A stretch of 64,000 nt of DNA from a virus (IMGVR_UViG_3300031539_000002); one strand, 5' to 3'. Shown: positions 44,773 to 63,807, counted from the stretch's first letter. Notes: generated from the letters alone by a model not told the origin. Numbers and translations are program-made.

Positions 44773-46758
44773 ATGCCAGCGGAAGGATCAGGTAAAGCAA
44801 TCGCCGGACCAGCGTCAACGACGGTTCGGACAAACGAGGGCGCACGCGTCGTGGCTGAGGTGCCGAACCATCGGACTCAGGTTCGCATTGGCAAGCCGTC
44901 CCGGGTGGTCGTTGGATCGATGCGCTCGCAAAACAAGTCGAGCTTCCGAGCAAGGGTGGCCGCTTCTTGCGGCCCCGGCAGCGGTGGCTTTGGCGGGACC
45001 GGTGGCGCATACGGCGGTGGCGGTGGCGGTGGTGGTGGCGGCGGGTTCGGAGGCAACGGGGGTGGTGGCGCAGTTGCCCAAGCATCCGCGGGCAACTTCT
45101 ATTCGCCCGAGCTGTCGACGGACTTCCTTGAGCTTCCGCAGTCTCTCAACGAGCAGTGGAACTACTACCGATTCTTCTACAACAACGAGCCGTTCGTCGG
45201 GCAGGCCCTTGACCTGCACACTGAGCTGCCGTTGTCGAAGGTCCGCCTTGCTCGCCCCAAGGCCAAAAGCAAGGCGCTTGCAGACCGGGCACTCCGTTTC
45301 TGCGAGAAGTGGGTCGAGGGCATCGGACTGCTGCAACGGCTGCTGGAGATCGTCCACGACTACTTCCTCATCGGGGAGGTCTACATCTTCTGCGAGGATG
45401 CCAACCCCGACATGCCTCGGGAGGTTCGGCAGAAGGTCGTCCGTCGCGTGGAGCACGACGGCACTCTCACAGAGCAGTGGATCGACCGCGAAGAGGCCGA
45501 TGACCTCGCTGTTGAATGGCTCAAGCAGAACTACAAGGGGCTCACGAACGTCCGCATCCTACCTCCTGAGCAGGTGCACATCCAGACGTTCCCGTTCACG
45601 GATGAAGTGATCATCGAGCTTATCCCTGACTCCAAGACGAAGCACGTCCTCGAGATGGCTGAGCAGGGGGACCGCAACGCACAACGCGTGGCAGATTCTA
45701 TGGACCCTGTGGTCATCGAGGCTCTTCGTCGCGGTGACAACATCCCGCTGTCCACGGACCCTGATGGGGGCTCGTTCGTCCACTACATGGCGAACAAGAA
45801 GTCGCAGTACGAGCCGCGCGGCCACAGCATCCTCCAGCGATGCCTCCGTACGCTCGTGTACTTCGACAAACTCCGTCAGGCGCAGACGAGTATCGCTTCG
45901 CGCCACATGACTCCTGTGCGTCTCGTCTACGCCGAGGACATGAGCGAGGCCGACACGGAGAACCTGCGCGACCAGATTGACCTCGCGCTCCAAGACCCCG
46001 ACTACTCGATCGTCACGAACTTCCAGGTCACCTGGGAGGAGATGAACTCAAACGGCCGTCTCCTTGAGCTCACGGGAGAGTACGACCTCATCAGCCGTCA
46101 GCTCTACGCGGGCCTTGGTGTGACTGAGACGTTGCTCAACGGTGAGTCGAGCTACTCGGGTGACCGCATCAACCTCGAGGTCATCAACACGCGCTACATG
46201 CTGCTTCGTGAAAACGTGCAGCGCCTCGTCGAGCAGTACTTCTTCAAGCCGATGTGTCGACGCATGGGCTTCGTGGAGGAGGACGAGGACGGCGAGATGG
46301 TGGTCATCTACCCGAAGCTGAGCTTCACCAGGCTCGCGCTCCGGGACAATCAGGACACCTTCGATGCCCTGTTCCAGCTCTACCAGAAGGGCAGCCTGGA
46401 CATCGAGACGATCCTCGACCTGCTCAACATCGACCCGGTCATGGTCAAGGAGCGCCTCGAGCGAGACTTCGCCACGTTCAACGATGCGCAGTTCAACGAA
46501 GTCCTTCGTTCGGTCTACGGCCGGTCGGGCGACCAACTCGCCGAGAACTCCAACATCGTCAACAAGATCGCGGAACAGCTCGGGCTCGAGTACAGCAAGC
46601 CCGAAGAGCCTGGCATGGGCCGATTCGCGTCCCTCAAGACCGCATCAGAGGGGGGTCTCCAAATTGGTGACGACATGGTTTCCAAGATCGCTGATGCAGT
46701 GGTCGAACGGCTCATGGGGACGCGGAAGGCGCCCGGAGAGCCCTCTGACGAGTCTTAG
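44773..46758 (+). CDS. Portal protein
   Basis: Downstream of TerL. YRFFY..EPFVGQALDLH..LPLS, YFLIGEVY and YEPRGHSILQRC are portal-like; Gly-rich N-terminal extension. Confidence 0.78.
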   Translation: MPAEGSGKAIAGPASTTVRTNEGARVVAEVPNHRTQVRIGKPSRVVVGSMRSQNKSSFRARVAASCGPGSGGFGGTGGAYGGGGGGGGGGGFGGNGGGGAVAQASAGNFYSPELSTDFLELPQSLNEQWNYYRFFYNNEPFVGQALDLHTELPLSKVRLARPKAKSKALADRALRFCEKWVEGIGLLQRLLEIVHDYFLIGEVYIFCEDANPDMPREVRQKVVRRVEHDGTLTEQWIDREEADDLAVEWLKQNYKGLTNVRILPPEQVHIQTFPFTDEVIIELIPDSKTKHVLEMAEQGDRNAQRVADSMDPVVIEALRRGDNIPLSTDPDGGSFVHYMANKKSQYEPRGHSILQRCLRTLVYFDKLRQAQTSIASRHMTPVRLVYAEDMSEADTENLRDQIDLALQDPDYSIVTNFQVTWEEMNSNGRLLELTGEYDLISRQLYAGLGVTETLLNGESSYSGDRINLEVINTRYMLLRENVQRLVEQYFFKPMCRRMGFVEEDEDGEMVVIYPKLSFTRLALRDNQDTFDALFQLYQKGSLDIETILDLLNIDPVMVKERLERDFATFNDAQFNEVLRSVYGRSGDQLAENSNIVNKIAEQLGLEYSKPEEPGMGRFASLKTASEGGLQIGDDMVSKIADAVVERLMGTRKAPGEPSDES

Positions 46759-46799: not shown

Positions 46800-48923
46800 G
46801 TGCCCCAGCCTGCGCCACAGAACTTCACGAAAATCGCTAACCGCGTCGTCCAGAGATGGATGCGGCGAAGTGTGCGTGTGGCCAAAGCGACGGGGACCAA
46901 GACCGGCCAAGGCGAATCGGTCGGGCTGTTCATCCCGCTCCCGAAGGACCTGGCCAAGCAGTTCCCAGACTTGGGGAAGAACGACTCTTCCCCCTCTCAT
47001 GTCACCTTCCTCTACATCGGGGATTTCAAGGACAAGGAGCAGCAAGAAAAACTCGTCGAGGTCCTCCGCGAGACGATGCGGAAGTGGTGGCCCGGAGCCA
47101 AGGCCACCCTCAATGGCCTTGAGTACTTCGACCACCACGACAAGGACCGTCGTGTCCCCCACGTCGCCGTCGATTTCGACAAGGACCTGAGCGGGTTCAA
47201 ACACCGCGTCAAGCAGGAACTCAGCGACGAAGGCATCGAGGTCGGTGACAAGTTCCCTGAGTTCAAGCCTCACGTCACCCTCTCGTACATGCCCGGCATG
47301 GACTCGGAGTGGGAAGGGGAGGTGCCCGAAGGGTCCTGGAACTTCGATGAGATGGAGGTCTGGGGGCTCCCCGAGCTCCACACCATCAAACTCGGACCCT
47401 CGGAGAAGAAGGTCGCCGCATCCTGGCTCCGAGGCAAGGTGGCCGGCTGGTGGGCCATCTCCCCCGGCAACCCAGGGATCAACCCGCCTCCCGTGGACAA
47501 GGGCGGCCTACTGAATGCACTCCCTGGCACAGACCCCGATAGCGCCCGCTACAACGGAGACGGGCCGGCTGACATCATGGGCAATGCGCTCGCTGCCGTG
47601 AACCAGGAGTATATTGACGCGTGGAAGCGTCCTGCGACTCCCGAGGAGATGCAGGCAGTCTTCGACTTCGTCTACGGAGGATTCGAGCGAGCACCCGAGC
47701 ACTACCTCCCCAAAGGCGATTCTGTCAGCCTCCGGGTAGCGGCTCGTTACATGCAGTCTTCCGTCCATCGCAAAAACATCTCCCTCATGAAGTGGCTCTC
47801 GCAACTGACCCGTCGATTGGGGGTTGGCCGGGACACGTACGTCGTGGGTGGTGCTGTGCGGAACTTTTTGATCGATCAGCCGATCAAGGACATCGACATT
47901 GTCATCGATACCACGAAGGCTGGCCGTGACTCTGACTGGCTCGCCAAGCAGATCGCTCGCAACATCCCAGCTCCCACGAACGTCACCACGAATCAATATG
48001 GCGTCGCCATCCTGACCGTGAAGGGGACGTGGATGATCGGAGGGGACGACCTCAACGGCGAAGTCCTTGAGATCGCCAACGCTCGCAAGGAAAGCTATGG
48101 GGGCCAGGGCGGCAAGGGCTACAAGCCTCACGCAGTCGCCCCTGCCACAATCGATGAGGACGTGCTTCGACGCGAGTTCACGTTCAACACGCTGCTATGG
48201 CGCATGATGGACTTGGCCCATGGTCCTGACAAAGCCGAGATCATCGACCTCACTGGCTGCGGTCGTCGTGACCTCGATCAGCGTGTGGTTCGTTGTCCGC
48301 AAGACCCCGACAAGGTGTTTTCGGATGACCCGACTCGGATGCTCCGGGCCATCAAGTTCACCGGCAAGTACGGCTTCAAGATTCCTCCCGATGTGGTGCG
48401 CTCCATCAAGCGCAACGTCTCCAAGCTCAAGCGCATGCCGTGGGAGGCTGTGGCGTCGATTCTCGTGAACGACGTGATGAGTCAGCCGACTGCTCGCAAG
48501 TCTCTCAAGCAGATGAAGGACCTTGGGTTGCTCGACACTGTGTCGGAGATGATCCAGGAGCAGAAGCCGTTCGCCACGTACATGAGCAACCAGCTCCGTC
48601 GCAACCGCAAGGTCCAGTTCTTGCTCGACCTCCTCGAGCTGGGCGTCCCCGCATCGACGCCGATCTCGTTTCTCGACCGCGCAGGCCAGCAGCGGTTGCG
48701 AGACCTGACTGTTTCGATGCCTGAGAAGGAGGCCGTCGCCTTCGTCGAGAATCTCATCAAGCCTCCTGTGGACAACAAGCGCATCATCGACGTGCTCAAG
48801 TTGGAGGGCCCCGATCGCCGTCACATCACCCCGACTGCTCGGCATCTGATCCTGCAAAATCCCGAGCTCGCGTCCAAGGGACAGCATCTCACTGACGCTG
48901 TCATCAAGGGATTGAGGAAGTGA
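46800..48923 (+). CDS. Fusion of a 2H phosphoesterase, a small unknown domain and a class II CCA-type tRNA nucleotidyltransferase
   Basis: HVTF (46998) and HVTL (47271) HxT pair; VVGGAVRN...KDIDI, EDVLRREFTFN, DDPTRMLRAIKF. Confidence 0.85.
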   Translation: MPQPAPQNFTKIANRVVQRWMRRSVRVAKATGTKTGQGESVGLFIPLPKDLAKQFPDLGKNDSSPSHVTFLYIGDFKDKEQQEKLVEVLRETMRKWWPGAKATLNGLEYFDHHDKDRRVPHVAVDFDKDLSGFKHRVKQELSDEGIEVGDKFPEFKPHVTLSYMPGMDSEWEGEVPEGSWNFDEMEVWGLPELHTIKLGPSEKKVAASWLRGKVAGWWAISPGNPGINPPPVDKGGLLNALPGTDPDSARYNGDGPADIMGNALAAVNQEYIDAWKRPATPEEMQAVFDFVYGGFERAPEHYLPKGDSVSLRVAARYMQSSVHRKNISLMKWLSQLTRRLGVGRDTYVVGGAVRNFLIDQPIKDIDIVIDTTKAGRDSDWLAKQIARNIPAPTNVTTNQYGVAILTVKGTWMIGGDDLNGEVLEIANARKESYGGQGGKGYKPHAVAPATIDEDVLRREFTFNTLLWRMMDLAHGPDKAEIIDLTGCGRRDLDQRVVRCPQDPDKVFSDDPTRMLRAIKFTGKYGFKIPPDVVRSIKRNVSKLKRMPWEAVASILVNDVMSQPTARKSLKQMKDLGLLDTVSEMIQEQKPFATYMSNQLRRNRKVQFLLDLLELGVPASTPISFLDRAGQQRLRDLTVSMPEKEAVAFVENLIKPPVDNKRIIDVLKLEGPDRRHITPTARHLILQNPELASKGQHLTDAVIKGLRK

Positions 48924-51900
48924 ACGCTCTCGTCGCACGCGTGGCTGCACGCCACATGGCTGCTCAGGATGATTTCTCCGTGGGCGACGAGGTGCTGTTT
49001 GGCAAGTACAAGAACAAGCGCGGCAAGATCGTGCGTCTGTTTGAGGATGAACGCGGCATCCCATCCGTCGAGATTGAGCCCATCCCCAAGGGTCGCAAAC
49101 AGAACCGTGTGATCGGCCTCTACAAGATCTGGAAGGGCGACCATCGCAAGCAGGCCGCGTACTCCAAGGAGTTTTTGGAGTTCGTTCAGGGACGCCGTTT
49201 CCAAAACCCCGACACCGGCAACCAAGTCTTGTTCCAGAGCCTTGAGGTTCCTGAGCAGGTCAAGATTTACCAGCAGTGGGGTGCCGCACAGAACGCCCAA
49301 GAAGAGAAGCCTGAGGGCCGAGAGCGCCACGAGCCCGGAAGGCTCCCGCCTGCGTGGAACCGTGACTCGGACATGGCACGTAAGGTAGAGAAACTCGCGG
49401 AAGAGTACGCGACGGAGTACGAGGATTTCTTTGACGGAATGCGACAAGTGTCCGTGGAGGACGAGCGCTATCGAGGGGCCGAATTCGCGGGCGAGGCGGT
49501 TATGCTCCGCGAGTGGGACCGTCACATCCCTGGGTACGTGCGGTTGCCCCCCTCTTCCACTTTGGAGGCTATGAGCGACGAAGATCGGCGCATCGCGCTG
49601 ACTTCATGGGACGCCGGTGTCAAGTTCATGGACGAGGTGCTTGGGGATGGTGAACGTCTTTCCCTTTTAGAGACCATGAAGCCTTCGGGAGAAGGAGGGT
49701 CGCTGGGGTCCCCCGGAGAAGGCTGGATCGACTCGACCCACAGCCCTGGAGCCCAACGTCTGCAAGGAGCTCTCCGAGAGTTGGGTATCGAGACACACCT
49801 GCCGTCTCGAGGCATCGAAGACCATGCAAAATGGCGTGACGAAGGGGCATCGAACGACCTACTCAAGAGTGCGTTGACGAAGGCGATGGCATGGCAACGC
49901 GCCTACTTCGCTGCGATGGGTGTTGAGGATGTGATGCTTTTCCGGGGAGCCAGTCTCGGTGACGAGGTGGCACGTCAACAGGAGCCCCACCCAACCGACA
50001 AACAGCAGAAATATCTTCCTCAAGGGATTCCGGTCACGTTGCAGAGTCGCCAGGAACTCTCGAGTTTCACGATGGACCCTTACGTTGCCTACAACTTCAC
50101 TCATCGAAATCGGAGTCCGGGAGAGAGTGACGAGAGCTACGAGAGTCGGGCGGGGAATTCCCTTCGCGGAGCAGTGGCGTACCGGGTTCCTGTTGACCGG
50201 ATTGTTTTGTCCCCAGCCGCAATCCCACAGCTCGGGCCTGCAACTCCGAAAATCAAGGAGGGCTACCGAGAGGTCGAGTTCATTGTGGGGGGCATTGGGG
50301 AACTTGAAGGGCGCACGCTGCCTTCACTGGATGCGGGATACGGAGCGGGCCGGTACGACCCCGAGAAGATGAAGCTCGCGACCAAGATCACCATCGAGAT
50401 GTCCGACGAAGACGAGGATGCGTGGCATAAGAGCGTGCGACGCGAGAACAAGGGCGACCGCCGCAAACAGGCCGCGTACTCCAAGGAGTTTTTGGACTCT
50501 GTGCAGGGGCAGCGGTTCCGCAACCCCGACACAGGCAACAAGGTCGTTTTCAAGTCGCTCTCCGAAGCAGAGCAACGGAAGATCCACGAGCGATGGGAGG
50601 CCCGTCATCGTAGCCAAGACGCGTCGGGGCCCACGGTGACAGAGCGCGGCCGTACCTTCGAGACAGGCAAGCCCGTTGCGTTTGAGTTCCTCCGCAACAC
50701 TGAGAAGGCTCCCAAGGCCCCTTCGGATTCGGACCCGTACCAGCAGAAGATCGAGCCCGCAGGGTTCTATGTGACCCACAAGGACACGGACGGGGACCCA
50801 CTCCCGGGCTACGACACGGGCACCATCAGTTTTCAGAACCCGCTCGTGCTCGCGGTCAACACCAACCCTGATGGCCCGATCTACGACGAGAACTCTTGGA
50901 AGGCGCAACTCGAGCGTCAGTACGGCAAGCGTGGAAAGGCCCTCACCAAGGCCCTCCAAGCTGACGGATACGACGGCATCGTGACCGTCACCCAAGTTCG
51001 TGGAAAGCCCTACACGTCCGAGATTGTTGTGCTCGACTCCGAAAAGTCTGTGCAGAAGGGCGACGACCGTAAGCGCAGGGCACAAGAGATCGCGGGCATG
51101 GGGTACGAGGCGGCGGCGCAGCTCGACAACGATGAACTTGATAGTGTGGCGTTTGGCGTGAAGCAGGGGGTCCAAGACCTTCGCATCGACCAGCTCAAGG
51201 TCAAGTACGACGCGGATCTTGAGCAGGCTGAGCATGCGGTGTCTCGAGAGCCCGACCGCTGGAAGGAACACCTTGATGAGCCTATTGAGGTCCGTTTCAA
51301 GGATGGGGAGTTCCACATCGAGGACGGCCACCATCGGTACGTGACGGCCCAGCGCATGGGCCGCGACAGCGTGAAGGTGGACCTGACTATCGATGACAAC
51401 CCTGTGAAGAAGATCTTTGAAATGGCCGGCAAGAAAATGGCTTCCTTCCATCGTGAAGCGTGCATCATCGCCGGCCGTCGGTTCGGAGACAGTCTGTGTC
51501 TCATCAAGAACCGCGACCGTGCCTACGACGCAGAGCTCGAGATCGTGCACCTGGAGAAGGACGGCACCGAGATGGCTGTCATCCTCGATACCGTGACCGG
51601 GTACATGGAGGGCGTCAACGAGCACGGGATCGCGGTCGTCAACACAACTCTGATGGTTGTGCGCGACGAAGCCGAGGGCAAGAAGAAGTCCCCCAACGGA
51701 GACAAGGGCAAGAAGCCCCTCACGTCCAAGGACGGCCCCAAGATCTACCGCGCCCTGGCGTGTGACAACATTGAGGATGCCCTTGAGTCCTTGCGCACGG
51801 ACGACAACGGTATTCGGGGCCATACCTTCGTGGCCGACGGCAACAAGTTGTTCTCCATTGAGTGCAGCAAGACGCACCCAGCTCGCGTAACGGAACTCGA

Positions 51901-54900
51901 CCCAGACCGCGTCAACACTCGAACGAACCACGGCGTCTCGTACCCCGATGCCGGGTACACGCACGGCGAGGACTACGTTAGTTCCGTCGTGCGTCGGTGG
52001 GAGGCACAGAAACGTCTGCAGGACATCAAGCGTCCTGAGGCGGCAGCCGTGGCCCTCATTGAGGCGATCGATGAGGCTGACAGCCCGTTCAATCCGGTCC
52101 GCACCACGGACAAGATGCGAACGACGAGCCAGCTTACCATCGACACGACCAACCCGAGGTTGCTGCTCTATCTGATCCCTGGCCACGCCAAGGTCGTCAA
52201 GCGTCGCAACACGCTGCCGGATGGGCGCAAGCCCAAGATCCCTGTCCGTGTCTTCAAATACCGCAACAAGATGGAAGACCGGAAGAAGCCGGTCAACAAA
52301 GACGCCGCCTTGATCGAACGCGTCGCAGCCCGATCATTGGACAAGCTCCCCGGTGGGTTGGCCGATGAGAAGAAGCCTGAGGATTTCGATCCCGAACAGA
52401 TCGCCAAGGGCACTAAGGTCGAGCTTGAGCATACGGATGACCGTGCAGTGGCCCGTGAAGTGGCGATGGATCATCTCACTGAGGACCCGAAGTACTACGA
52501 CAAGCTTGAGACCATCGAGAAGCACGGCGCCCGCTACAAGTCCAAGAAGAAGGTCAAGACCAAGGACGGCGACGAGATGACGGTCTACGAGTACAGCGAC
52601 CGTCAAATCGCTGATCGGAACCGGGGCAAAGCAGAACGCATCGAGAAACTGCGCAAGCAGATGAAGAAGCTCCAGACCAAGGTCCGCAAGGACGTGAACT
52701 CCAAGGACGAGAAGACTCGTGACCTCGCGCTGGCAGTCGGCTTGATGGACGAGACCTTTGAGCGTGTTGGCAACGACGGGAGCGCCAAGGAAGGCCACTT
52801 CGGCGTCACCACCTGGCGGGTGAAGCACATGACCTTCGGTAAGGGCGGCGTCACGATCACGTACGTCGGCAAGTCGGGGGTTGACCAGAAGAAGAAGGTC
52901 ACGAACCCGCGCATCGTTTCGGGTCTCAAGGACGCCTGCAAAGACAAGGAGCCCAACGCTTGCGTCCTGAGCGTCACGGCTTCCGAAGTCAACGAATACC
53001 TCAAGCCGCTCGACATCACCGCCAAGGACATCCGAGGGTTCCACGCGAACCAGAAGATGAAAGAGGAACTCCGAAAGGTCCGCAAGGGGAAGCTCCCCGA
53101 AGACCCCAAGGAGAAAGAGAAGAAGCTCAAGGACGAGTTCAAGAGTGCCCTCGAGGCCACTGCTGACGCGGTAGGCCACGAGGCATCAACCTTGCGCAGC
53201 CAATACCTCGTCCCAGGCCTGGAGGATGACTACATGAGAGACGGGACCGTCAATGAGAGTCACACCAAAAAGGGCTCTACCCTCCACACCGCGGCGTTGG
53301 ACGGAACCCCAACAGAGCGCCACATCCTTGCCCATGCCCAACTCGCTCCGGTCCTGGTAACCGCCAACCGACGTTGGTGGATTCAAAAAGCTCCGAACCT
53401 GTACCGAATCGCGCGTGAAGACGAGAGGCCGCGCCCCCATATCGAGGGTGTTCGTTTCCCGCCAGAGGTCTTCACAGTGCTCTGGTACGAGGACGACGAC
53501 GGCAATCGCTATGAGATGCCCGAGGATGGTCCCGAGCATCCCGAAGGCGCCAAGTACCAACTCAGCCAGTTCCCGAACTACCTGCACGACAGCATGTTGC
53601 AGCTCAACGAGGATGGCACCTCTACGGAGATCATGAGCGGTCAGCGAGGGTTCCCTGAGGACCTTGTGACCTCCATGGTGCGCAGCGGCGAGTGGGACGT
53701 GGGCGACGCCATCATGGTCGGCGGCACGAGCTGCGAGCGCTGCATGAACGTCTTGTGCAATCGCTACTTGGGCCCGGAGGAAGGCTACCCCTACGACTCG
53801 GAAGAGTATTGGCAGTGCGGGACCCGATGCGCCATGTGTGGGCACGTCGACAACACCAACGAGCGGGTGGTCCGACAGCCCCGCTATGCGTCTCCGAGCT
53901 ACGACAGTTACGTCCAGCGCAAGCGCAGAGAAGGCGGCCCTGTGCTGTCCCGTGATGAATGGGAAGCCAAGGTCATGGGCGTCGAAGATGACGCTGACGA
54001 GACCCCTGAGGCTACCCGTGAAGACTGGGAGGCCCGTCGCAATGCTCTCATGGAGGAGCACGGCCTCGACAAGTTCCATTCGTCGTACCGTCCTGACGAG
54101 AAGCACATGACGATTGACCTCATCTCCGTTCCCAAGGAGAACAAGGGTCAAGGCAGTGCTTCAAAGGCCATGAAAGAGACGCTGGCGTGGGCTGACTCCA
54201 ACGGCGTCACGGTCACGTTGTCGCCAACTTCTGAGTTCGGTGCCTCCAAGAAGCGCCTTGAGAAGTGGTATCGCAGCATGGGCTTCGTGCCGAACAAGGG
54301 GCGCAACAAAGACTTCCGGTTCACAGACGCGATGCTCCGCGAGCCGCAGGCCAAAACGGCCACGAAATCCGATGCGGAGAACGAAGATGAGGCGGTGGCG
54401 AAGATGCTCCGCAAGGAGCCCAAACTCAAGCCTCCGCGCTACGACCTTCGTGACAACCGTACTCTCGACGACGACGACCCTGAGGACGATCTTGGCGGTG
54501 GCGATGACGGCGACCGCGACATGTCCATGAAGTGGAACAAGGTGGCGAGCCGCGTGGCTTTCCGTTGGACAGCGATTGGGCCTCGAGTCCCACGACCTGA
54601 ACGCGTTGCTCGACTGTTCTTGGCGGAGGCGCCCCCAAAGGACAAAGCCCAGCCCAAGAGCGGTCCGAGCTTCGAGGAGTGGGTCAAGAACCAGAAATTC
54701 AAGCACCCTGAGACCAGCAACGATGTTGGGTTCTCATCGCTCCCCTCTGACGAGCAGGCCAAGATCCGCGAGAAGTGGAAGGGTCAGCAACAGCCTGAGG
54801 ATGAGAGCGGCAAGGACAAGGGGAAGGGTGATGAGGATGCGAAGCGCACCAAAGAAGACGTGCAGGTCGACCTCAATAACGCGCGCGACGAGATGCGGGA

Positions 54901-57900
54901 CCTAGAGTCCCAGATGGGCGACATCGAGAACGAGATCAAAGACCTCGAGGCCAAACTTAAAGGGTTCAAGCAGTACGAAAATCTCTCAGGCGATGCCAAG
55001 AAGCAGATAGACGAGCATGTTCGGGACACCCAACGTGCCATTGGCCGCAAGAAGGATGAACTTGAGGACAAGAAGGAAGAGTTCGACGAAGCGAAGGAGA
55101 AGGTCAAAGAGCTCAGGGCTGAGCGAAAGGACCCCGGCTTCGCTCAAGCCAAGCGCAAGGAGCAGGCTCGCAAGCAGCGAGCCGAACGGGTGAGCCGTGC
55201 TGTCCTCAAGGCGCAAGGAGACATGCAGAAACTCCTCGGTAACGAGGATACCCAGATCCCAGGGGTCCTTGCCAAGCAGATTGCCAAGGCACTCAACAAC
55301 CTCGATGAGTCTGAGGTGGAGTCCTTTTCGATTGATTTTCAGGACACGCTCCAAAAGTTGATGGGGATGGACTCGAGTTCGGATGAGGCACTTGAGTTGG
55401 CGTCTCAAGCCGCCAAGTTTGGTGACCTCCATGGCCTTACTGATCCGGGGGAGTTGGCCGTGCGAATGGCTCAGCTCAGCTATGCGCAGAACGTCGTCGC
55501 CAATCCGATGAACATCGGGGGAAAGCCGGTCGGCGTCACGGAGATGGACAGTGACAAGTACGCCGAACGTGCTCGCGCATCCTACGACCAGTTTCAGAAC
55601 CTGCCGTCCTCTTTGCGTACGCAGGCTGCGAGGCAAGTGACGGAGGCGCTCGAGGGTCTGGACCCTGAGACGCACCGCTCACAGGAACTCAATGCCATTT
55701 TGACGGGCATGAACCTTGCTCAGGTGGCGGCGACGGGGGACTCCCTCCCAGGGCGCCCTCAACCGAGCAAAGGGATGGCGTCAGTCATCCAAGCGATGGC
55801 TGAAAAGGGCGATGTTGATGCCCTCTTCACTACTTCGGAGGACTACTTTGCAGAGCAAGCTCGCGGGAAGATGGAGAAGAGTCTTGATGACATGACGCCA
55901 CTTGAGGTGGCTCAGTTGGCCACACAAGGGGATTCCAATCACGGCTACGCGGGGATGGTCAAATTGATTGAGGAGGAGTCTACGCCTGATGTCATGAGAG
56001 CCATGATGAAAGACTATCTTATCCAAGACATCCTCAACGATCAGTGGGGCGACCGAGCCATCCGCGACACGATGCAGGCTGCGGGTCTTGTGGATGCTGA
56101 TGACCCCGAGGTACGCGCAGGAGTGGTGGGTGAAGCTAACGAGCGCATGAAGCCTCGGATGGAGCAGATGCTTGAGGCGCGGGAGCGTATTGCTCAAGCC
56201 GAGAAAGAAGGCAAAAAACCGGATCCCGAAGACGAGGCCATTGTTGCAGGCGTCTTGGACAAGGAAAAGGGTACCGGTCTACGTGAGAAGGCGAAGGCTG
56301 TTCTCGATACGATCAAGGACAAGTTCAAGAAGGTCGTCATCTCCCCGGCGAGCGCGGTGCTCCAGCACTTCGTCAACACGGGTGACCGAAAAGTGCTCGA
56401 GCAAGAGACGCTGCCACATCCTGATGAGAAGGCCAAAGCACCTCGTCCCAAGGAAGAGCGTGATGAGGCTCGTGGAGGCGAGAGCACGGCACCGAAGTCG
56501 AAGCGCGAGCGCATGATCGAACGTGTGCGTCTCAAGGCTGAGAGGGTCAAGCTCAAGGCACAGCGCGACAAGGTGAAGGGCGACGAGAAGGGCAAGTACG
56601 ACGAGAAGATCAAGGACCTCGATGGGAAGATCGAGGGCCTGTCGAAAGAGCCTGAGAGCGACGAGTCCGAGAGCGAGCAGCCCAAATCCCGCGAGGATTA
56701 CCGAGCGAAGTTCGATGGCTCGACGTGGGGTGACGACGACGCGGGCACCGAGTACCACGTCGGGGATCTCATCCATAAGGCTGAGTCCAAGGAGGTCGAA
56801 GAGGTTCCGATCGCGGACATCGAGGAGAGCCTCAAGAATATCTCGGCAGACGAGCCGGTGGGTTCGCCCGAGTTCAAAGAGCGAGCTGACAAGGCCGACC
56901 TCAAGTATCCCGTCGTTCTCATGCGACAGGAAGACGGCTCCCTCGAGATCGTGGATGGCTCCCATCGAGCTTGGAAGGCACGCGAGACGAAGCAGCCGTT
57001 GAAGGCTCGGATTCTGGAGCCCGCCGATCTTGAAGATCTTGAGCAGGTCTCCGACGCTGATCGTGAAAAGTGGGACGAAAACGTCGAGTCTCAGGACGAC
57101 GAGGAGCACGGCCCCGGCGACGTTTGGGAGACCGAGCAGGGCAACTGGCGCGCCAAGAACCCGGACGGCGTCCCCAAATCATTCAAGGACAAGGACAAGG
57201 CTGAGATCTACGCCAAGGGCCCAGACGAGAAGGAGTCCGAGGGGAGCGCTGAGAAGCCCAAGGGAGCGCCCGACGAGGCTGAGGGGAAAGGCCAAGCCGA
57301 GAAGGACGAAACGGCTGAGGGAGCGTCTGAGGGAGCGTCTGAGGGCGCCTCTGAGAAGCCCAAACAGCAGCGCCGGGCCGTCAAGGACGAGCACTTCGAC
57401 CGCACGCAGGATGCTGTGGACTCCGTAGGAGCACCCATCCAGGAGAGCTTTACGAAGCTGGCGGACGACCCTGCTTTCCTCAAGATGAGCCCGCAAGAGC
57501 GATACACGCGTCTCGGAGAGACGCTCAAGGAGGCCATTCCTGGTGCTCGAGCGATCCAAGTGCCTGGGGCCGGTTCTAACGCTCCCATCAGCATCACGGT
57601 GCCCGAGGAACACCGAGCTCCCGGCGTGACCTCCCGGCAGAAGATTCGCTTGCAGCCCAACAGCACGGGTGGCGAGGCGTCGGGTAAGGGCGGCCATCTG
57701 GGGCTCGGTGTGAAGGACCTGCTTGAGGCCAAGACGCCCGAGGAGATCAAGAATGCGACTGCGCGGGTCATGGGCACGATGGTGCATGAGATGACCCACA
57801 TTTACGGGCATCATGGGACCAACCCCGATGAGTTTGACGATGAGGACAAGAAGGTGCGCCACATCCGATACATCTCGGACCCGGGGGAGATGCGGGCCCA

Positions 57901-58297
57901 CGCGAAGGAATTCGCGTGGCGTTACGCTCAGGACCACCCCGATGAGGGGGAGGTCGACATCGACAAATTAGAAGAGGCTCACAAGGGAGTGGGTAAGGAT
58001 TGGAAGATCCGGCAGTACTTCCAACAGCTCGGTGACAAGGAAGTCCAAGCCAAGTACGACCCTGAGGTCCAGAAGCTCATGCAGGACACGCATGAGGAGA
58101 TGGGCGACTTGGTGCAGCACTACGTCGACGAGTACCGGAAGCGCAATGGCCAACAGCGCAAGATGGGGAGCCGCGTGGCCCAAGCGTGGCTCGAGAAGGA
58201 ACGTCCCGTTCGCATGGCGAATGACTGGTTGGCACACGTCCGTTCGTTCCATCCAGACGACCCAAAACGTCCGATTGTCGTGCTCGACGCGGCTTGA
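48920..58297 (+). CDS. 3125-aa polyvalent protein: ART x2, ParB-like x2, Ntn hydrolase, DUF5661-like, topoisomerase IB, Cys-rich domain, GNAT, coiled coil, zincin
   Basis: FRG/SSFT/EVE; GFY..NPL..GYDG..EIVV; IEDGHHR and IVDGSHR; CII..KNRDR; ERVG/GKSG/KDIR/VGH/QYL; KGQG...WYRSMGF; HEMTH. Confidence 0.88.
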   Translation: MNALVARVAARHMAAQDDFSVGDEVLFGKYKNKRGKIVRLFEDERGIPSVEIEPIPKGRKQNRVIGLYKIWKGDHRKQAAYSKEFLEFVQGRRFQNPDTGNQVLFQSLEVPEQVKIYQQWGAAQNAQEEKPEGRERHEPGRLPPAWNRDSDMARKVEKLAEEYATEYEDFFDGMRQVSVEDERYRGAEFAGEAVMLREWDRHIPGYVRLPPSSTLEAMSDEDRRIALTSWDAGVKFMDEVLGDGERLSLLETMKPSGEGGSLGSPGEGWIDSTHSPGAQRLQGALRELGIETHLPSRGIEDHAKWRDEGASNDLLKSALTKAMAWQRAYFAAMGVEDVMLFRGASLGDEVARQQEPHPTDKQQKYLPQGIPVTLQSRQELSSFTMDPYVAYNFTHRNRSPGESDESYESRAGNSLRGAVAYRVPVDRIVLSPAAIPQLGPATPKIKEGYREVEFIVGGIGELEGRTLPSLDAGYGAGRYDPEKMKLATKITIEMSDEDEDAWHKSVRRENKGDRRKQAAYSKEFLDSVQGQRFRNPDTGNKVVFKSLSEAEQRKIHERWEARHRSQDASGPTVTERGRTFETGKPVAFEFLRNTEKAPKAPSDSDPYQQKIEPAGFYVTHKDTDGDPLPGYDTGTISFQNPLVLAVNTNPDGPIYDENSWKAQLERQYGKRGKALTKALQADGYDGIVTVTQVRGKPYTSEIVVLDSEKSVQKGDDRKRRAQEIAGMGYEAAAQLDNDELDSVAFGVKQGVQDLRIDQLKVKYDADLEQAEHAVSREPDRWKEHLDEPIEVRFKDGEFHIEDGHHRYVTAQRMGRDSVKVDLTIDDNPVKKIFEMAGKKMASFHREACIIAGRRFGDSLCLIKNRDRAYDAELEIVHLEKDGTEMAVILDTVTGYMEGVNEHGIAVVNTTLMVVRDEAEGKKKSPNGDKGKKPLTSKDGPKIYRALACDNIEDALESLRTDDNGIRGHTFVADGNKLFSIECSKTHPARVTELDPDRVNTRTNHGVSYPDAGYTHGEDYVSSVVRRWEAQKRLQDIKRPEAAAVALIEAIDEADSPFNPVRTTDKMRTTSQLTIDTTNPRLLLYLIPGHAKVVKRRNTLPDGRKPKIPVRVFKYRNKMEDRKKPVNKDAALIERVAARSLDKLPGGLADEKKPEDFDPEQIAKGTKVELEHTDDRAVAREVAMDHLTEDPKYYDKLETIEKHGARYKSKKKVKTKDGDEMTVYEYSDRQIADRNRGKAERIEKLRKQMKKLQTKVRKDVNSKDEKTRDLALAVGLMDETFERVGNDGSAKEGHFGVTTWRVKHMTFGKGGVTITYVGKSGVDQKKKVTNPRIVSGLKDACKDKEPNACVLSVTASEVNEYLKPLDITAKDIRGFHANQKMKEELRKVRKGKLPEDPKEKEKKLKDEFKSALEATADAVGHEASTLRSQYLVPGLEDDYMRDGTVNESHTKKGSTLHTAALDGTPTERHILAHAQLAPVLVTANRRWWIQKAPNLYRIAREDERPRPHIEGVRFPPEVFTVLWYEDDDGNRYEMPEDGPEHPEGAKYQLSQFPNYLHDSMLQLNEDGTSTEIMSGQRGFPEDLVTSMVRSGEWDVGDAIMVGGTSCERCMNVLCNRYLGPEEGYPYDSEEYWQCGTRCAMCGHVDNTNERVVRQPRYASPSYDSYVQRKRREGGPVLSRDEWEAKVMGVEDDADETPEATREDWEARRNALMEEHGLDKFHSSYRPDEKHMTIDLISVPKENKGQGSASKAMKETLAWADSNGVTVTLSPTSEFGASKKRLEKWYRSMGFVPNKGRNKDFRFTDAMLREPQAKTATKSDAENEDEAVAKMLRKEPKLKPPRYDLRDNRTLDDDDPEDDLGGGDDGDRDMSMKWNKVASRVAFRWTAIGPRVPRPERVARLFLAEAPPKDKAQPKSGPSFEEWVKNQKFKHPETSNDVGFSSLPSDEQAKIREKWKGQQQPEDESGKDKGKGDEDAKRTKEDVQVDLNNARDEMRDLESQMGDIENEIKDLEAKLKGFKQYENLSGDAKKQIDEHVRDTQRAIGRKKDELEDKKEEFDEAKEKVKELRAERKDPGFAQAKRKEQARKQRAERVSRAVLKAQGDMQKLLGNEDTQIPGVLAKQIAKALNNLDESEVESFSIDFQDTLQKLMGMDSSSDEALELASQAAKFGDLHGLTDPGELAVRMAQLSYAQNVVANPMNIGGKPVGVTEMDSDKYAERARASYDQFQNLPSSLRTQAARQVTEALEGLDPETHRSQELNAILTGMNLAQVAATGDSLPGRPQPSKGMASVIQAMAEKGDVDALFTTSEDYFAEQARGKMEKSLDDMTPLEVAQLATQGDSNHGYAGMVKLIEEESTPDVMRAMMKDYLIQDILNDQWGDRAIRDTMQAAGLVDADDPEVRAGVVGEANERMKPRMEQMLEARERIAQAEKEGKKPDPEDEAIVAGVLDKEKGTGLREKAKAVLDTIKDKFKKVVISPASAVLQHFVNTGDRKVLEQETLPHPDEKAKAPRPKEERDEARGGESTAPKSKRERMIERVRLKAERVKLKAQRDKVKGDEKGKYDEKIKDLDGKIEGLSKEPESDESESEQPKSREDYRAKFDGSTWGDDDAGTEYHVGDLIHKAESKEVEEVPIADIEESLKNISADEPVGSPEFKERADKADLKYPVVLMRQEDGSLEIVDGSHRAWKARETKQPLKARILEPADLEDLEQVSDADREKWDENVESQDDEEHGPGDVWETEQGNWRAKNPDGVPKSFKDKDKAEIYAKGPDEKESEGSAEKPKGAPDEAEGKGQAEKDETAEGASEGASEGASEKPKQQRRAVKDEHFDRTQDAVDSVGAPIQESFTKLADDPAFLKMSPQERYTRLGETLKEAIPGARAIQVPGAGSNAPISITVPEEHRAPGVTSRQKIRLQPNSTGGEASGKGGHLGLGVKDLLEAKTPEEIKNATARVMGTMVHEMTHIYGHHGTNPDEFDDEDKKVRHIRYISDPGEMRAHAKEFAWRYAQDHPDEGEVDIDKLEEAHKGVGKDWKIRQYFQQLGDKEVQAKYDPEVQKLMQDTHEEMGDLVQHYVDEYRKRNGQQRKMGSRVAQAWLEKERPVRMANDWLAHVRSFHPDDPKRPIVVLDAA

Positions 58298-59175: not shown

Positions 59176-60186
59176 ATGGGACGCCTCATGCCCAGTCTCT
59201 CCCTACAGCAGACCAGAACGTACATCGACAGGCTCGGTGATCTCGAAAACGAGCTCACCCGATCCTGTCGTGTCGCAGAGGTCATGTCCAAAGGCGCCGA
59301 CAAAGATCAGGCGGCCGCGGGCGGTCGTCTGAAAGACGCCTGCGACTCGGCGCGGGAGCACCTCAAGTACGTCGCGGAGGCGAAGACACGCCTGCTCGAG
59401 TTCGATGGGTTCCTGCATGCGCAAAGCCAGACCATCCGTGAGTCGCTCGATCGACCACACATGGTCTCGTTCATGAACGAGGTGGGCTCCAAACTGGGGC
59501 GCTCCATGGAAAGTCACGTCGAAGCCATCGTCAGCGGTGCCATCGACGCCCTTCGCAGAGTCGCCGGCTCCATCAAGGACATGCGCGATGCGAAGGCTGG
59601 TACCGAGGGCGACGCGTCCGCCAAGGGGAGTGCCAAAGCACTCGACAAGATCTGTGACGCTGCTGAGAAGGCCATTCGAGAAGGGGTCAAGGAGCGCAAA
59701 GCTGCTCCGGCACCTGCTCCTGAGGTCGAAGTTGAAGTCGAAGTCGAACTCGACGAGGAGACCGAAAAAATGGCAGCACATGGTTACAACCTGACAGCAG
59801 GCCTTCCTCCCGAGTTCTTGGAGAATATCCAGAAGAAAAAGGATGAAGCCAAGGGCAAGAAGGACGACGACAAAGAGGACGAGAAAGACGCGGGCAAGAA
59901 AGCCTACGTCCAAGTCCAATACCTGACGGCGGGCCTTCCTCCTGAGTTCCTGGAGAACATCCAGAAGAAAAAGGACGAAGCCAAGGGCAAGAAGGACGAC
60001 GACAAAGAGGACGAGAAAGACGCGGGCAAGAAAGCCCACGGCTACACCCTCACCGCCGACTCCTTGACCCCCGGCAATGAATCCAAAGGCCCCAAGGACG
60101 AGGGCGAAGAAGACGAGGGTTGGGTTCCGGGTCATCGCACCGATGGCAAGGACAAGAAGGCCCACGGCTACACGCTTACTGCGTAG
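59176..60186 (+). CDS. Hypothetical head-region protein with repeated C-terminal peptide units
   Basis: 336 aa; LTAGLPPEFLENIQKKKDEAKGKKDDDKEDEKDAGKKA twice and HGYxLTA three times. Confidence 0.72.
   Translation: MGRLMPSLSLQQTRTYIDRLGDLENELTRSCRVAEVMSKGADKDQAAAGGRLKDACDSAREHLKYVAEAKTRLLEFDGFLHAQSQTIRESLDRPHMVSFMNEVGSKLGRSMESHVEAIVSGAIDALRRVAGSIKDMRDAKAGTEGDASAKGSAKALDKICDAAEKAIREGVKERKAAPAPAPEVEVEVEVELDEETEKMAAHGYNLTAGLPPEFLENIQKKKDEAKGKKDDDKEDEKDAGKKAYVQVQYLTAGLPPEFLENIQKKKDEAKGKKDDDKEDEKDAGKKAHGYTLTADSLTPGNESKGPKDEGEEDEGWVPGHRTDGKDKKAHGYTLTA
59791..60036 (+). repeat. Direct repeat of 114 bp, period 132 bp
   Basis: Copies 59791-59904 and 59923-60036 encode identical peptides with a few synonymous changes. 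Confidence 0.9.
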
Positions 60187-60821: not shown

Positions 60822-62330
60822 ATGGCGTTCTCTAAGACCGCTCGAGCAGACGTGACGCAGCCTTCGTGGTCGATGGACCATTGGGGCAACTTCGTGCAGC
60901 AAGCGCGTGGGCGCGTTCGTACTGCTTCAGGTTCCCCGAACCTGGTGTCCCAGGCATCGGAGATCCTCCAAGAGAACTTCTCTCCCGAGAAGTACCTCCT
61001 GACGCACGCGACCATCGTGGCGTCGGTGGATACCGATGACGTGCAGAACGTCAAGCTCGGGAACATCAACGAGCTCGGTCGCAAGGTGAATCGCCGGTGG
61101 GCGAACTACCGCATCAAGCCGGGCTGCGACATCTACATCAACAACAACCACGACGCGTGGGACCGACCGGTGCTCCTCAAGAGCTACCGAACCTTCGTCG
61201 GCGCCCACAACTTCGTGGAGCACGTTCAGATCGAGGACCAGTCGAAGGGCCGCATCATCGATGCTGCTGCCCGCGACATCGGCGACTCGGTCTACGTGGA
61301 CATCCTCATCGCGACCAACCGCCGTCACTCGAGCCTGATTCGGGACATCGAAGCTGGCCGCATGAACACGATGAGCATGGGCTGCTCCGTCACGGAAACG
61401 ATCTGCACGAAGTGCGGGAACGTGGCCGCCGACGAGACGGAGATGTGCGAGCACGTCAAGTACGCCAAGGGGCAGTACGAGTACGACTCGTTGGGACGCA
61501 AGTACCGAGTGGCCGAACTCTGCGGCCATAGTGACATCGACCCCACAGGCGGCGTGACGTTCATCGAAGCGTCATGGGTCGCGGTCCCTGCTTTCCAGGG
61601 TGCCGTGATGCGCAACATCCTTGCGCCAGGCTCCATCAACTTGGATACGCGGAGTCAGATGCAGAAGGTGCTCTCAGAGCCCCCTTCGCAGTGGACTGCC
61701 GACGATGATCAAATGGCCAAGGCCGCTCGCACACTCGAAGTGACGTTCGATGAGAACTCCCTCGATGCTGTGCAGCTCGCCGAGCGCCGTCGCCTCCAGC
61801 GTATTGCTGAGATGCCCGCCATGCCTGAGATGCCCCCAATGGGTGCTCCGGGCGAAGGTGGCGCACCAGGCGGTGAAGAAGCTGACCCGATGAAGGATCT
61901 CGAGGACGAGATCGAGAAGTACGTCCTCGACAAGATCAAGAAGAAGATTCGGGACAAGATGGTTTCGGAGGAGGACGAGGACCAGGTTTCCGAAGAGGAA
62001 CTTGCCACGTCGTCCAACGAGAACATCAACCACCAAGCAGCCAAAGTCGCTGCACTGACGAACGGTACGAAGACCCTTCTTCGCATCGCTCGCTCTGACG
62101 TGGAGTTGCTCGACGGGATGGCCCGTCTCCAGCAAAGCCACGGCATCAAAGTTTCGAGAGAACTGTACAGGACCGCCCTCCGGGTCGGGTCTACCGACGG
62201 GCACCCCTCTCTCGAAAAGTACCTCGTGCAATGTGCCGAGGTGCTTGGTCACAACCCAAACACGGGAGAATCCAAGACCTTGGTGCGTCTTGGGCGAATC
62301 CTTTCAATGCGAAAGAAGACCCGGTTCTAG
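60822..62330 (+). CDS. Putative prohead (capsid maturation) protease with zinc-finger insertion
   Basis: NFVEH...GRIID, TMSMGC, CTKCGN..CEH and FIEASWVAVPA follow the HK97/assemblin-fold His...Ser...ExSxVxxPA pattern. Position between portal and scaffold. Confidence 0.7.
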   Translation: MAFSKTARADVTQPSWSMDHWGNFVQQARGRVRTASGSPNLVSQASEILQENFSPEKYLLTHATIVASVDTDDVQNVKLGNINELGRKVNRRWANYRIKPGCDIYINNNHDAWDRPVLLKSYRTFVGAHNFVEHVQIEDQSKGRIIDAAARDIGDSVYVDILIATNRRHSSLIRDIEAGRMNTMSMGCSVTETICTKCGNVAADETEMCEHVKYAKGQYEYDSLGRKYRVAELCGHSDIDPTGGVTFIEASWVAVPAFQGAVMRNILAPGSINLDTRSQMQKVLSEPPSQWTADDDQMAKAARTLEVTFDENSLDAVQLAERRRLQRIAEMPAMPEMPPMGAPGEGGAPGGEEADPMKDLEDEIEKYVLDKIKKKIRDKMVSEEDEDQVSEEELATSSNENINHQAAKVAALTNGTKTLLRIARSDVELLDGMARLQQSHGIKVSRELYRTALRVGSTDGHPSLEKYLVQCAEVLGHNPNTGESKTLVRLGRILSMRKKTRF

Positions 62331-62361
62331 CCAGAACACCAAGTCTCAGGAGAAAAAAATC

Positions 62362-63807
62362 ATGGCACGTCAACGACTCACCCGTAAGCTGGCCGAGCAA
62401 AGCAAAAAGGCCTCCCCTCCCCCACAGATCCCCGCGGTCGATCGCACTGAGGGCCCGAGCAATCCGGCCTACTACCCCGATCCCGACGCGGACAAGTATC
62501 AGAACGGCGACACCAGCTCGTGGGCAGAAGATCCCCACAAGCCGATGGAGCCCGAGAGCCCGCCCCCGGCCATGCCCGGTAACCTGACCACGGAGAAGCT
62601 GGATCACCCCGGCACCTCCGAGTTCAGCAAGAAGCCCGAAACCCCGGAGCAAGCTGCTGCCGAAGGTGGCGGCGGTGGCAAGTCGGCGTCCCTCAAGGAG
62701 CTCGCCGAGCAGCGCGCTACCCTGTGCGTCCGTCTCGCTTCTGCAATGCTGCCCAAGTCCTCGGCCCTCGAGATCGAGGAGCGCGCTGTCAGGCTCATGG
62801 ACCTTGACGACGCAAAGCTCAAGGCCGCAATGGAGACCTTCAACGTCCTCGCCGGCGAAGAGCCCGACGAGTTCGAAGAGGGCGAAGAGTCCGAAGGGAC
62901 CAAGGAGTTCGACGAAGAGAAGGAAGGCGGCAAGAAGGCTGCTCACGAACTCACCGCGCACTCGGCACGCATCGCGAAGATTGAGGGTGCGCTTGGTCGC
63001 ATCGTCAAGGCCATGGGCCACTTCTTCGGGATGGAAGAGGGCGACGAGGGCATGAGCGACAAGGAGCTCATGGCCTACCTCATGGCCGAGGACATGGACG
63101 GCGACGGCGTCGACCAGAACGAGCCCGACTACGGCTACGGCGGTGGCGGCGAGAAGTCCTCCATGGAAGAGGAAGTGGAAGAGGAAGAGGCCATGCTTCG
63201 CGCCATGCTCGAGGAGATGGACGAGGAAATGGCTGTCATGGCTTCGGCCGCGACCGAGACCACCGAGCCTCTCGCCAAGGGTGCGGACATCCAATCGGGT
63301 GAGGGCGGCAACGTCAATCCCGATCCCGCTCCCCACACTCCCGTCGTCGCTCAGAGCGACGGTGCCGAGAAGAAGGCCAACGAGGACCCCACCGACAACG
63401 ACATCGAGATCAGCGCCTCTGGTGCTGACCCGATGGGTCTGATGGACCTCACCGCTTCGGCCGACGACGAGCTGCTTGCTCTCTACGCCGATCTCGACCT
63501 GCCCAAGACGGCCGGTGAGGAAATGGAAGAGGCCGAGGAAGCCCCGGTCGACGACGAAGCCGGAACCGATGAGAAGGCCGAAGAGGACGACATCGAGTTC
63601 GGTGCCGACGACGAGAAGAAGGGTGGCAAGAAGGCCGCACCCGTCAAGCAACGTCCGCAGCCCAAGGCGGCTTCGGCCGGCGCTCGCACGCTCGGCAATG
63701 TTGCCGGGATGCCCAAGGCTGCACACGACGAGATCGCCGAGCTCGGCAAGATCTGGGACACCGCTCCCGACGTTGCGTCTGTGTTCGGACTCCCCAGCGG
63801 AAGCTGA
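62362..63807 (+). CDS. Putative scaffolding protein
   Basis: Very acidic, low-complexity protein after the protease; AGGAG RBS; many KKA/KTA/KSA motifs. Confidence 0.6.
   Translation: MARQRLTRKLAEQSKKASPPPQIPAVDRTEGPSNPAYYPDPDADKYQNGDTSSWAEDPHKPMEPESPPPAMPGNLTTEKLDHPGTSEFSKKPETPEQAAAEGGGGGKSASLKELAEQRATLCVRLASAMLPKSSALEIEERAVRLMDLDDAKLKAAMETFNVLAGEEPDEFEEGEESEGTKEFDEEKEGGKKAAHELTAHSARIAKIEGALGRIVKAMGHFFGMEEGDEGMSDKELMAYLMAEDMDGDGVDQNEPDYGYGGGGEKSSMEEEVEEEEAMLRAMLEEMDEEMAVMASAATETTEPLAKGADIQSGEGGNVNPDPAPHTPVVAQSDGAEKKANEDPTDNDIEISASGADPMGLMDLTASADDELLALYADLDLPKTAGEEMEEAEEAPVDDEAGTDEKAEEDDIEFGADDEKKGGKKAAPVKQRPQPKAASAGARTLGNVAGMPKAAHDEIAELGKIWDTAPDVASVFGLPSGS

Follow-up and report, generated by a model that had tools for sequence, protein, structure and literature searches.

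We analysed a 64,000-nucleotide stretch of DNA from the virus IMGVR_UViG_3300031539_000002 (hereafter the window, with positions counted from its first letter). The window is phage DNA with a GC content of ~60%, and it encodes a polyprotein of 3125 residues that contains, well inside the chain, a domain of the N-terminal nucleophile (Ntn) hydrolase type. Ntn hydrolases are textbook self-activating enzymes, and in the class that uses Cys as its nucleophile the α-amino group of that residue must be free. The stop-free translation of 51431-52260 on the + strand yields residues 838-1113 of the giant open reading frame (ORF), including the domain and the short junction that precedes its putative nucleophile, Cys848. 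The features at the core of this analysis are the following, where ↓ marks a predicted or known scissile bond here and throughout.

48920..58297, + strand: gene for the 3125-residue polyvalent protein with the Ntn domain, situated between the portal and prohead protease genes.
51434..51460, + strand: nine-residue junction with tandem [KR]-x-A↓[S/C] sites, K-M-A↓S (P1 at residue 841) and R-E-A↓C (P1 at residue 847).
51461..52258, + strand: Cys-Ntn hydrolase domain, residues 848-1113, C45-like, β-subunit only, as seen with Pfam AAT, NCBIfam, AlphaFold2 (AF2), Foldseek, and VIA.
51461..51463, + strand: TGC codon of Cys848, the predicted N-terminal nucleophile, directly after R-E-A, invariant, and matched to known nucleophiles by superposition.
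51506..51520, + strand: K-N-R-D-R motif, residues 863-867, 15-19 residues past the nucleophile, at the R-x-x-D position of other Cys-Ntn enzymes.
51608..51628, + strand: E-G-x-N-E-x-G motif (EGVNEHG, residues 897-903), holding the invariant Asn900, a candidate oxyanion-hole residue.
51920..51934, + strand: R-T-N-H-G motif, residues 1001-1005, holding the invariant Asn1003 and His1004.

A sequence-only reading of this DNA had placed the Cys848 codon at 51461, right after R-E-A, and had quoted the motifs KNRDR, EGVNEHG, and RTNHG; the TGC codon indeed lies at 51461-51463 and all three motifs are present in the translation. In an alignment of 72 sequences, columns K26, N27, R28, D29, R30, E60, G61, N63, N71, N166, H167, and R188 are invariant, and the remaining positions of RTNHG (R164, T165, and G168) are at least 90% conserved. 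We take KNRDR to be the equivalent of the catalytic R and D of penicillin V acylase (PVA) and NAAA, an assumption that comes from knowledge of the family and not from superposed side chains.

The same reading had described the domain as C45- or choloylglycine-hydrolase-like, and this placement agrees with the profile matches and with the structural ones described below. The Pfam family AAT (PF03417) matches the domain alone at 33.4 bits and within the whole ORF at 25.2 bits, above the cut-off of 23.2. The NCBIfam profile C45_proenzyme (NF040521) scores 51.9 bits, under its curated cut-off of 85, and its alignment spans only profile positions 107-286 of 313. Because this alignment begins at position 107, the phage domain is an Ntn domain without the α-subunit. 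Given that the proenzyme cut-off was not reached and that the α-subunit is absent, we file the domain as a new phage subfamily and not as a canonical C45 proenzyme.

We predicted the structure of the domain with AF2 from 72 homologues, which gave a confident model (pLDDT 92, pTM 0.90) with an Ntn fold; the segment before the Cys is weakly modelled, with residues 1-6 below a pLDDT of 50 and the first ten averaging 52. Foldseek matches the model with a probability of 1.00 to IAT, bile salt hydrolase (BSH), PVA, and NAAA, and the matches from Foldseek and VIA alignment are Ntn hydrolases only. VIA Z scores lie at 16-21 over 196-230 residues, including 20.7 for CV2077, 19.4 for NAAA, 18.3-18.6 for precursor and mature IAT, and 18.0 for acid ceramidase; further structural matches include a C69 dipeptidase, bile salt hydrolases, penicillin V acylase, PLBD1, and TANGO2. 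In the VIA superpositions Cys848 (model residue 11) pairs with C126 of NAAA, C103 of IAT, C143 of acid ceramidase, C2 of BSH, and C1 of PVA, each of which heads the mature chain of its enzyme and acts as its nucleophile. PDB sequences yielded no match by phmmer or with the 72-sequence profile, and the link to solved structures is therefore one of fold only. The match to Ntn hydrolases far exceeds chance, and these results confirm that residues 848-1113 are a genuine Cys-type Ntn hydrolase domain, C45-like, and predicted to be an amidohydrolase or acyltransferase.

The closest comparison is with the C45/IAT family and the uncharacterised short bacterial protein CV2077 (3gvz), which have the same Ntn fold with the Cys nucleophile first in the catalytic chain; Z is 18-21 for 3gvz and for IAT (2x1c and 2x1d), with Cys848 lying on C103 of IAT. 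The phage domain differs from C45 enzymes in that it does without the ~100-residue α-subunit and is either embedded in a polyprotein or placed behind a leader of 0-24 residues. NAAA, acid ceramidase (C89), BSH, PVA (C59), and TANGO2 likewise share the fold and the position of the nucleophile (Z 15-19), and the basic-x-x-Asp element ~16-19 residues past the Cys, together with the conserved Asn residues, resembles the catalytic sets of these enzymes, in part on family knowledge. In contrast, identity to these enzymes is only 13-17%, with no Pfam matches to their families, and whereas they self-process or rely on Met removal, the phage junction carries a putative viral-protease motif.

The domain belongs to a large family. 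A full HMMER scan returned 425 clusters at 50% identity (E≤1e-3), nearly all of whose alignments start at query residue 1, the Cys, and IMG/VR holds 574 Ntn loci. The Cys is invariant in one alignment (96/96), and an HMM-based check found it in 295 of 310 sequences, the remainder being 13 N-terminally truncated calls and 2 alignment offsets; among homologues with the N-terminal part present it is kept in 295/297. Conservation of the Cys at the domain start, which the sequence-only reading had made a test of its proposal along with the fold, thus holds for every informative homologue. Among cultured phages, tblastn with three different family members as queries found the family only in the Chryseobacterium phages MA9V-1 and MA9V-2, as a standalone hypothetical protein of 274 residues, gp182 in MA9V-1, and the family is almost wholly uncultured. 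PHROGs has no family for the Ntn domain or for the Chryseobacterium homologue, the cluster names for the family in protein collections are all "hypothetical" or absent, and literature searches turned up nothing relevant, either on jumbo-phage Ntn hydrolases or on the combination of a prohead protease with an N-terminal nucleophile.

A standalone gene encodes the domain in many relatives; of 250 motif hits, 83 have it embedded in a longer protein, where it is preceded by the junction motif also seen in N-terminal copies. Fusion partners in these relatives include topoisomerase IB, PolyA_pol/CCA enzymes, 2H, Zeta toxin/kinase, GGACT, SOD, PAP2, and ART-PolyVal domains.

Across the family, the residues that precede the nucleophile fall into distinct classes. 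Class A, [KR]-x-[AGS]↓C, comprises 95 non-redundant sequences including the window; K or R occupies P3 in all 95, P1 is A in 73, G in 11, and S in 11, and P2 and P4 are free. Class E, [LIV]-x-E↓C, comprises 57 sequences, with E at P1 in 55 and L, I, or V at P3 in 54. A further ~16 homologues simply start with M-C. The junction rules are identical for internal domains and for leaders of 4-24 residues, and the P3/P1 constraint, judged from the aligned sequences, looks like that imposed by protease subsites. In the domain tree, class E forms one clade and class A the rest, while M-C starts arose at least five times; a free N-terminal Cys would therefore be the end state that they share, and the leader is dispensable for folding. 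In class E phages the Ntn domain often sits inside proteins of 1000-1600 residues with Zeta-toxin/AAA_33 kinase and cytidylyltransferase-like domains (P0139-P0164), and in these fusions the Cys is preceded by V-S-E or [VI]-D-E.

A Met stands at P5 in 43 of the 95 class A sequences, many internal copies among them, which raises the question of a separate start: the Ntn module might be translated from the in-frame ATG at 51437 (Met840) and an 8-residue leader then removed. This Met, which lies five residues before the Cys in those relatives, is eight before it here, no Shine-Dalgarno-like sequence lies upstream of ATG 51437, and the P5 Met is retained inside long leaders and so behaves as part of the motif. 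An internal start would moreover still require the leader to be removed by another route, and we regard it as extremely improbable.

The sequence-only reading had argued that an internal Ntn domain implies that the polyprotein is cut, and this argument follows from the family mechanism, which shows that the predicted catalytic domain would need the chain to be cut at A847↓C848 in order to work. The candidate for the cutting enzyme is encoded a short way downstream in the same module.

60822..62330, + strand: prohead protease candidate with a C-terminal extension (phrog_18299, head maturation protease, 1.2e-11).

In Tunturiibacter phage Tunturi_5 the protein annotated as head maturation protease shares 42% identity with this candidate. 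The window protein has an R-T-A↓S itself, at about residue 35, and an N-terminal R/K-x-A↓S at residue ~25-35 is kept in 5 of 6 orthologues, recalling the L-I-E near the N-terminus of T4 gp21.

We compared junction class and head protease type in 35 IMG/VR records, 14 of class A and 21 of class E or M-C, most of the records without a protease match being fragments. Of the 21 class E or M-C records, 10 encode a gp21-type protease (PF03420), against none of the 14 of class A; conversely, the window-type protease occurs in 7 of the 14 class A records but in 0 of the 21 others. MA9V-1, whose junction is L-N-E↓C, also encodes a PF03420 domain. The gp21 protease cleaves after L/I-X-E, removes propeptides of 7-65 residues, and needs both P3 and P1 for processing (PMC9026906).

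One T4-like locus (L091) illustrates the correspondence. Its Ntn gene lies beside those for terminase, the gp20 portal, an S77 protease, and gp23, and encodes a leader of 11 residues ending in L-I-E↓C; L-I-E also ends the leaders of the adjacent, unrelated polyvalent protein of 1245 residues and of the S77 protease itself. In this branch the Ntn leader looks, from its ending and its neighbours, like an ordinary gp21 propeptide. The distance from Ntn gene to protease gene in T4-like records ranges from 2 to 98 kb, and leader-bearing and M-C copies are not separated by it. The same locus has a gene for ribosomal protein S21 (PF01165, 18570-18782) directly after the S77 protease gene, inside the head module.

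We then asked where else the [KR]xA[SC] motif occurs in the lineage of the window's protease, comparing observed counts with those expected from shuffles in six related phages. One of the proteins with an excess is encoded 3' of the protease.

62233..63807, + strand: acidic scaffold-like protein 3' of the protease, with 4 [KR]xA[SC] sites against 0.52 expected (p=0.001).

Across the six phages, scaffold-like proteins have 4-9 sites against 0.2-0.7 expected (p≤0.001), a 6- to 20-fold excess. The proteases have 3-5 sites against ~0.5-0.6 in 4 of the 6 phages (p≤0.012), a 5- to 10-fold excess, with no significant excess in the window's own protease (1 against 0.47) or in that of locus L096 (2 against 0.63); replication and other genes have 0-1 sites. 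In Tunturi_5, 6 sites fall in gp332 where 0.58 would be expected, and two of these have Cys at P1'; the "DNA ejection protein" gp328 has 5 against 0.97. The 485-kb uncultured phage LR745208.1 shows the same enrichment as Tunturi_5. Over the scaffold-like proteins, most C-terminal extensions of the proteases, and the DNA ejection protein, the excess is 5- to 20-fold. Judging from the excess in scaffold-like proteins and most proteases, the motif of the window protease would be [KR]-x-[A/G/S]↓[S/C]. The ~291-residue major-head-protein homologues of the relatives contain no [KR]xA[SC] site and hence offer no check on the motif. In the window, an unannotated ORF of 805 residues (37865-40282) has 4 sites against 0.82 expected (p=0.006) and may encode a head or cargo protein.

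These phages also bear on whether the Ntn domain might itself be the processing peptidase, as the sequence-only reading had raised, freeing its own N-terminus and then cutting other [KR]xA junctions in trans. The junction motif does co-vary with the Ntn subfamily, some Ntn enzymes (the proteasome and C69 dipeptidases) are known from the wider family to hydrolyse peptide bonds, and a C69 enzyme is among the structural matches. Yet neither Tunturi_5 nor LR745208.1 gave a match to Ntn family members by tblastn, and both show the enrichment in scaffold-like proteins; since the motif is enriched in phages without such a match, the Ntn domain is unlikely to be what recognises [KR]xA[SC]. Many relatives, too, are standalone and have no polyprotein to cut, and the closest structural relatives are amidases and acyltransferases that act on non-peptide amides. 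We consider a peptidase role for the domain very unlikely.

Within the giant ORF, the motif occurs at the Ntn junction (841↓842 and 847↓848), at 1657↓1658 ahead of a GNAT region, and at 1876↓1877, where a recurrent helix that we call the RVAxR-aromatic tag follows directly. This tag helix has 38 hits in ~253 kb of class A loci and 3 in ~258 kb of class E loci, a 13-fold difference, and in 10 of 35 cases [KR]xAS lies at most 14 residues upstream of it, against a background of 2.6% (p=1.6e-8). The tag may be a capsid-targeting or docking signal. Its copies in the window begin at 46842, 47733, 48938, 52319, 54551, 58172, and 60563, located at either terminus or at a domain boundary of head-module proteins; it is found as well in loci L003-L010, L018, L042, and L059, and the longer leaders of standalone Ntn relatives consist of it. 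One copy follows the Ntn domain.

52292..52339, + strand: linker 3' of the Ntn domain, with K-D-A↓A and then the RVAxR tag helix, at the start of the DUF5661 and topoisomerase IB module.

The arrangement of K-D-[AS] and tag recurs in two other loci (L005 and L006), and by its sequence the K-D-A↓A of the linker is a possible downstream cut site.

Taken together, we think it probable that the prohead protease (60822-62330) exposes Cys848 by cutting at KMA↓S and REA↓C, the two sites in tandem. The sequence-only reading had proposed that this protease cuts at [K/R]xA; that proposal is, indirectly, much strengthened by the P3/P1 constraint, by the way the junction follows the protease family, and by the enrichment, while the cutting agent itself is something we infer. 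The Ntn domain would be an inactive zymogen inside the polyprotein, becoming active once the A847-C848 bond is cut. The polyprotein would be loaded into the prohead and split into modules during head maturation, when the prohead protease would cut the junction and so arm the enzyme inside the capsid; the armed enzyme would then be delivered into the host with the DNA and act on a host amide substrate. From the comparisons given here we infer each of these steps: that the junction is cleaved and by which enzyme, that the protein is packaged and injected, and that its substrate is an amide.

Several observations weigh against this proposal. To our knowledge, all characterised Cys-Ntn hydrolases with a propeptide (PVA, IAT, NAAA, and acid ceramidase) process themselves, and the nearest NCBIfam entry is named "C45 family autoproteolytic acyltransferase/hydrolase". 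The correlation between motif and protease rests on a single evolutionary switch, class E being one clade, and two further copies of the motif in the giant ORF lie within folded domains (residues 344 and 1339), probably by chance. The papers on Tunturi and phage G contain no cleavage-site data. Finally, many standalone relatives have a leader of only 4-5 residues, which is too short for a capsid-targeting signal and falls under any known gp21 propeptide (7-65 residues; PMC9026906).

Some of these same facts would be expected if, once folded, the domain broke the A847-C848 bond itself through an N-to-S acyl shift, as PVA, IAT, NAAA, and acid ceramidase do, with P3 and P1 serving the geometry of self-cleavage; the domain would then be a self-splitting joint of the polyprotein first and an enzyme afterwards. 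Autoprocessing is established as the default mechanism of the family, the name of the nearest NCBIfam entry fits it, and the common leaders of 4-5 residues resemble the 3-residue leader of PVA. The segment preceding the Cys in the AF2 model aligns, at low pLDDT, with the pre-nucleophile segments of the precursor structures 2x1c, 6dxw, 5u84, and 2iwm, and the repeated origin of M-C starts implies that the leader is not needed for folding. Autoprocessing leaves unexplained, however, why the leader switches from [KR]xA to [LIV]xE where the resident protease becomes gp21 type, why unrelated neighbouring proteins have the same leader endings, and why [KR]xA[SC] is enriched in scaffold-like proteins, including those of Tunturi_5, which has no tblastn match to the Ntn family. 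The α-subunit of canonical C45 precursors is also missing from the phage domain. On balance we hold self-cleavage to be less likely than cutting by the prohead protease, but a serious rival to it.

The domain is encoded in the head module, whose genes lie on the + strand in the order TerL, portal, CCA/2H protein, giant ORF, three small ORFs, protease, and scaffold-like protein, and the major capsid gene is beyond the window end. The genes upstream of the giant ORF are the following.

42089-43993, + strand: large terminase (TerL).
44773-46758, + strand: portal gene.
46800-48923, + strand: 2H-phosphoesterase/CCA-nucleotidyltransferase fusion.

A megablast search with the head module against 50,697 phage records gave zero matches. 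Neighbour annotation puts the giant ORF in the head-morphogenesis module, as for the cargo of T4 represented by IPI-III and Alt, which are targeted to the capsid and lose a propeptide to gp21. As with that cargo, the Ntn leader of the T4-like relatives ends in the motif of the resident protease, exactly L/I-X-E; the linker in the window ends in the putative motif of its protease, and the phage Ntn protein is predicted to be delivered with the DNA. The systems differ in what the cut would do: in T4, cleavage only releases cargo, whereas here it would create a catalytic N-terminus, making the protease a zymogen activator. In addition, the site in the window is internal to a polyprotein of 3125 residues, and its protease is of a different family.

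The giant ORF also has the composition of a polyvalent protein, with Pfam matches to AAT, DUF5661, and Topoisom_I (eukaryotic-type topoisomerase I), a sub-threshold GNAT match, two ParB-like motifs, and an adjoining portal gene. The polyvalent proteins of Iyer et al. 2017 (PMC5512222) likewise string many effector domains (ART-like, ParB-like, topoisomerase IB, and GNAT, among others) on one chain, are encoded beside virion genes, and are predicted to be injected; the text of that paper contains "Ntn" 0 times. The processing proposed there is by an MPTase metallopeptidase, a domain frequent but not obligatory in such proteins, unlike the prohead protease sites or the Ntn junction described here.

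The giant ORF has an HExxH motif of its own (residues 2956-2960, window 57785-57799), in a region that may be an MPTase-like domain typical of polyvalent proteins, and either this region or a host protease could in principle free the Cys. The region matches the zinc peptidase families BSP, Peptidase_Mx1, and WLM, all sub-threshold, and Iyer et al. 2017 (PMC5512222) make the case that polyvalent proteins are processed by MPTase domains. Those peptidase matches fall far under the cut-offs, though (E 0.05-1.5), an HExxH-type domain is lacking from standalone Ntn genes that have this junction, and the junction motif tracks the prohead protease family. Cleavage by such another protease therefore seems to us highly improbable.

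The rest of the giant ORF and its neighbours show several further repeats. The two ParB/sulfiredoxin-like motifs, D-G-[HS]-H-R, lie at 51323-51337 and 56954-56968, the first of them in the domain directly upstream of the Ntn junction. A module of ~40 residues, F..V...[KR]F.[NH]P[DE]T[GS]N..., occurs three times (49172-49222, 50489-50539, and 54671-54721); copies 1 and 2 flank an ART-like region and are close to each other in sequence. In the ORF of 336 residues at 59176-60186, a segment of ~35 residues is duplicated in tandem, and H-G-Y-[TN]-L-T-A appears three times, each copy with K-x-A before it and the last one forming the C-terminus; the E-L-T-A that follows K-K-A-A in the scaffold-like ORF is related to this motif.

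We return to the proposal that the prohead protease frees Cys848. For the family as a whole, the balance tips slightly towards a widespread and hitherto undescribed class of capsid cargo in which an Ntn zymogen, instead of activating itself, is armed in trans by the maturation protease, with its junction retuned to the protease of each phage ([KR]xA in the jumbo-phage lineage of the window, L/I-x-E in T4-like phages). That same reading, held at the same strength, includes the Ntn domain as a module of a tag-and-cut system, in which the RVAxR tag and [KR]xA↓S string effectors into polyproteins.

If this is correct, it would add a new mode of control to Ntn hydrolases, in which a viral maturation protease does the activating, and would let a phage keep the enzyme off until it is sealed in the capsid. 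Because the domain can work only with its N-terminus free, the junction locates, with single-residue precision, a required cut in the 3125-residue polyprotein. It thereby offers a testable cleavage motif for the prohead protease family of soil jumbo phages (Tunturi_5) and, more distantly, of cluster C mycobacteriophages, and would be the first readout of cleavage specificity for the window-type family. The Ntn domain defines a large family, with hundreds of IMG/VR loci and no annotation, that travels together with domains of the anti-defence type, and its substrate may point to a host process attacked on phage entry.

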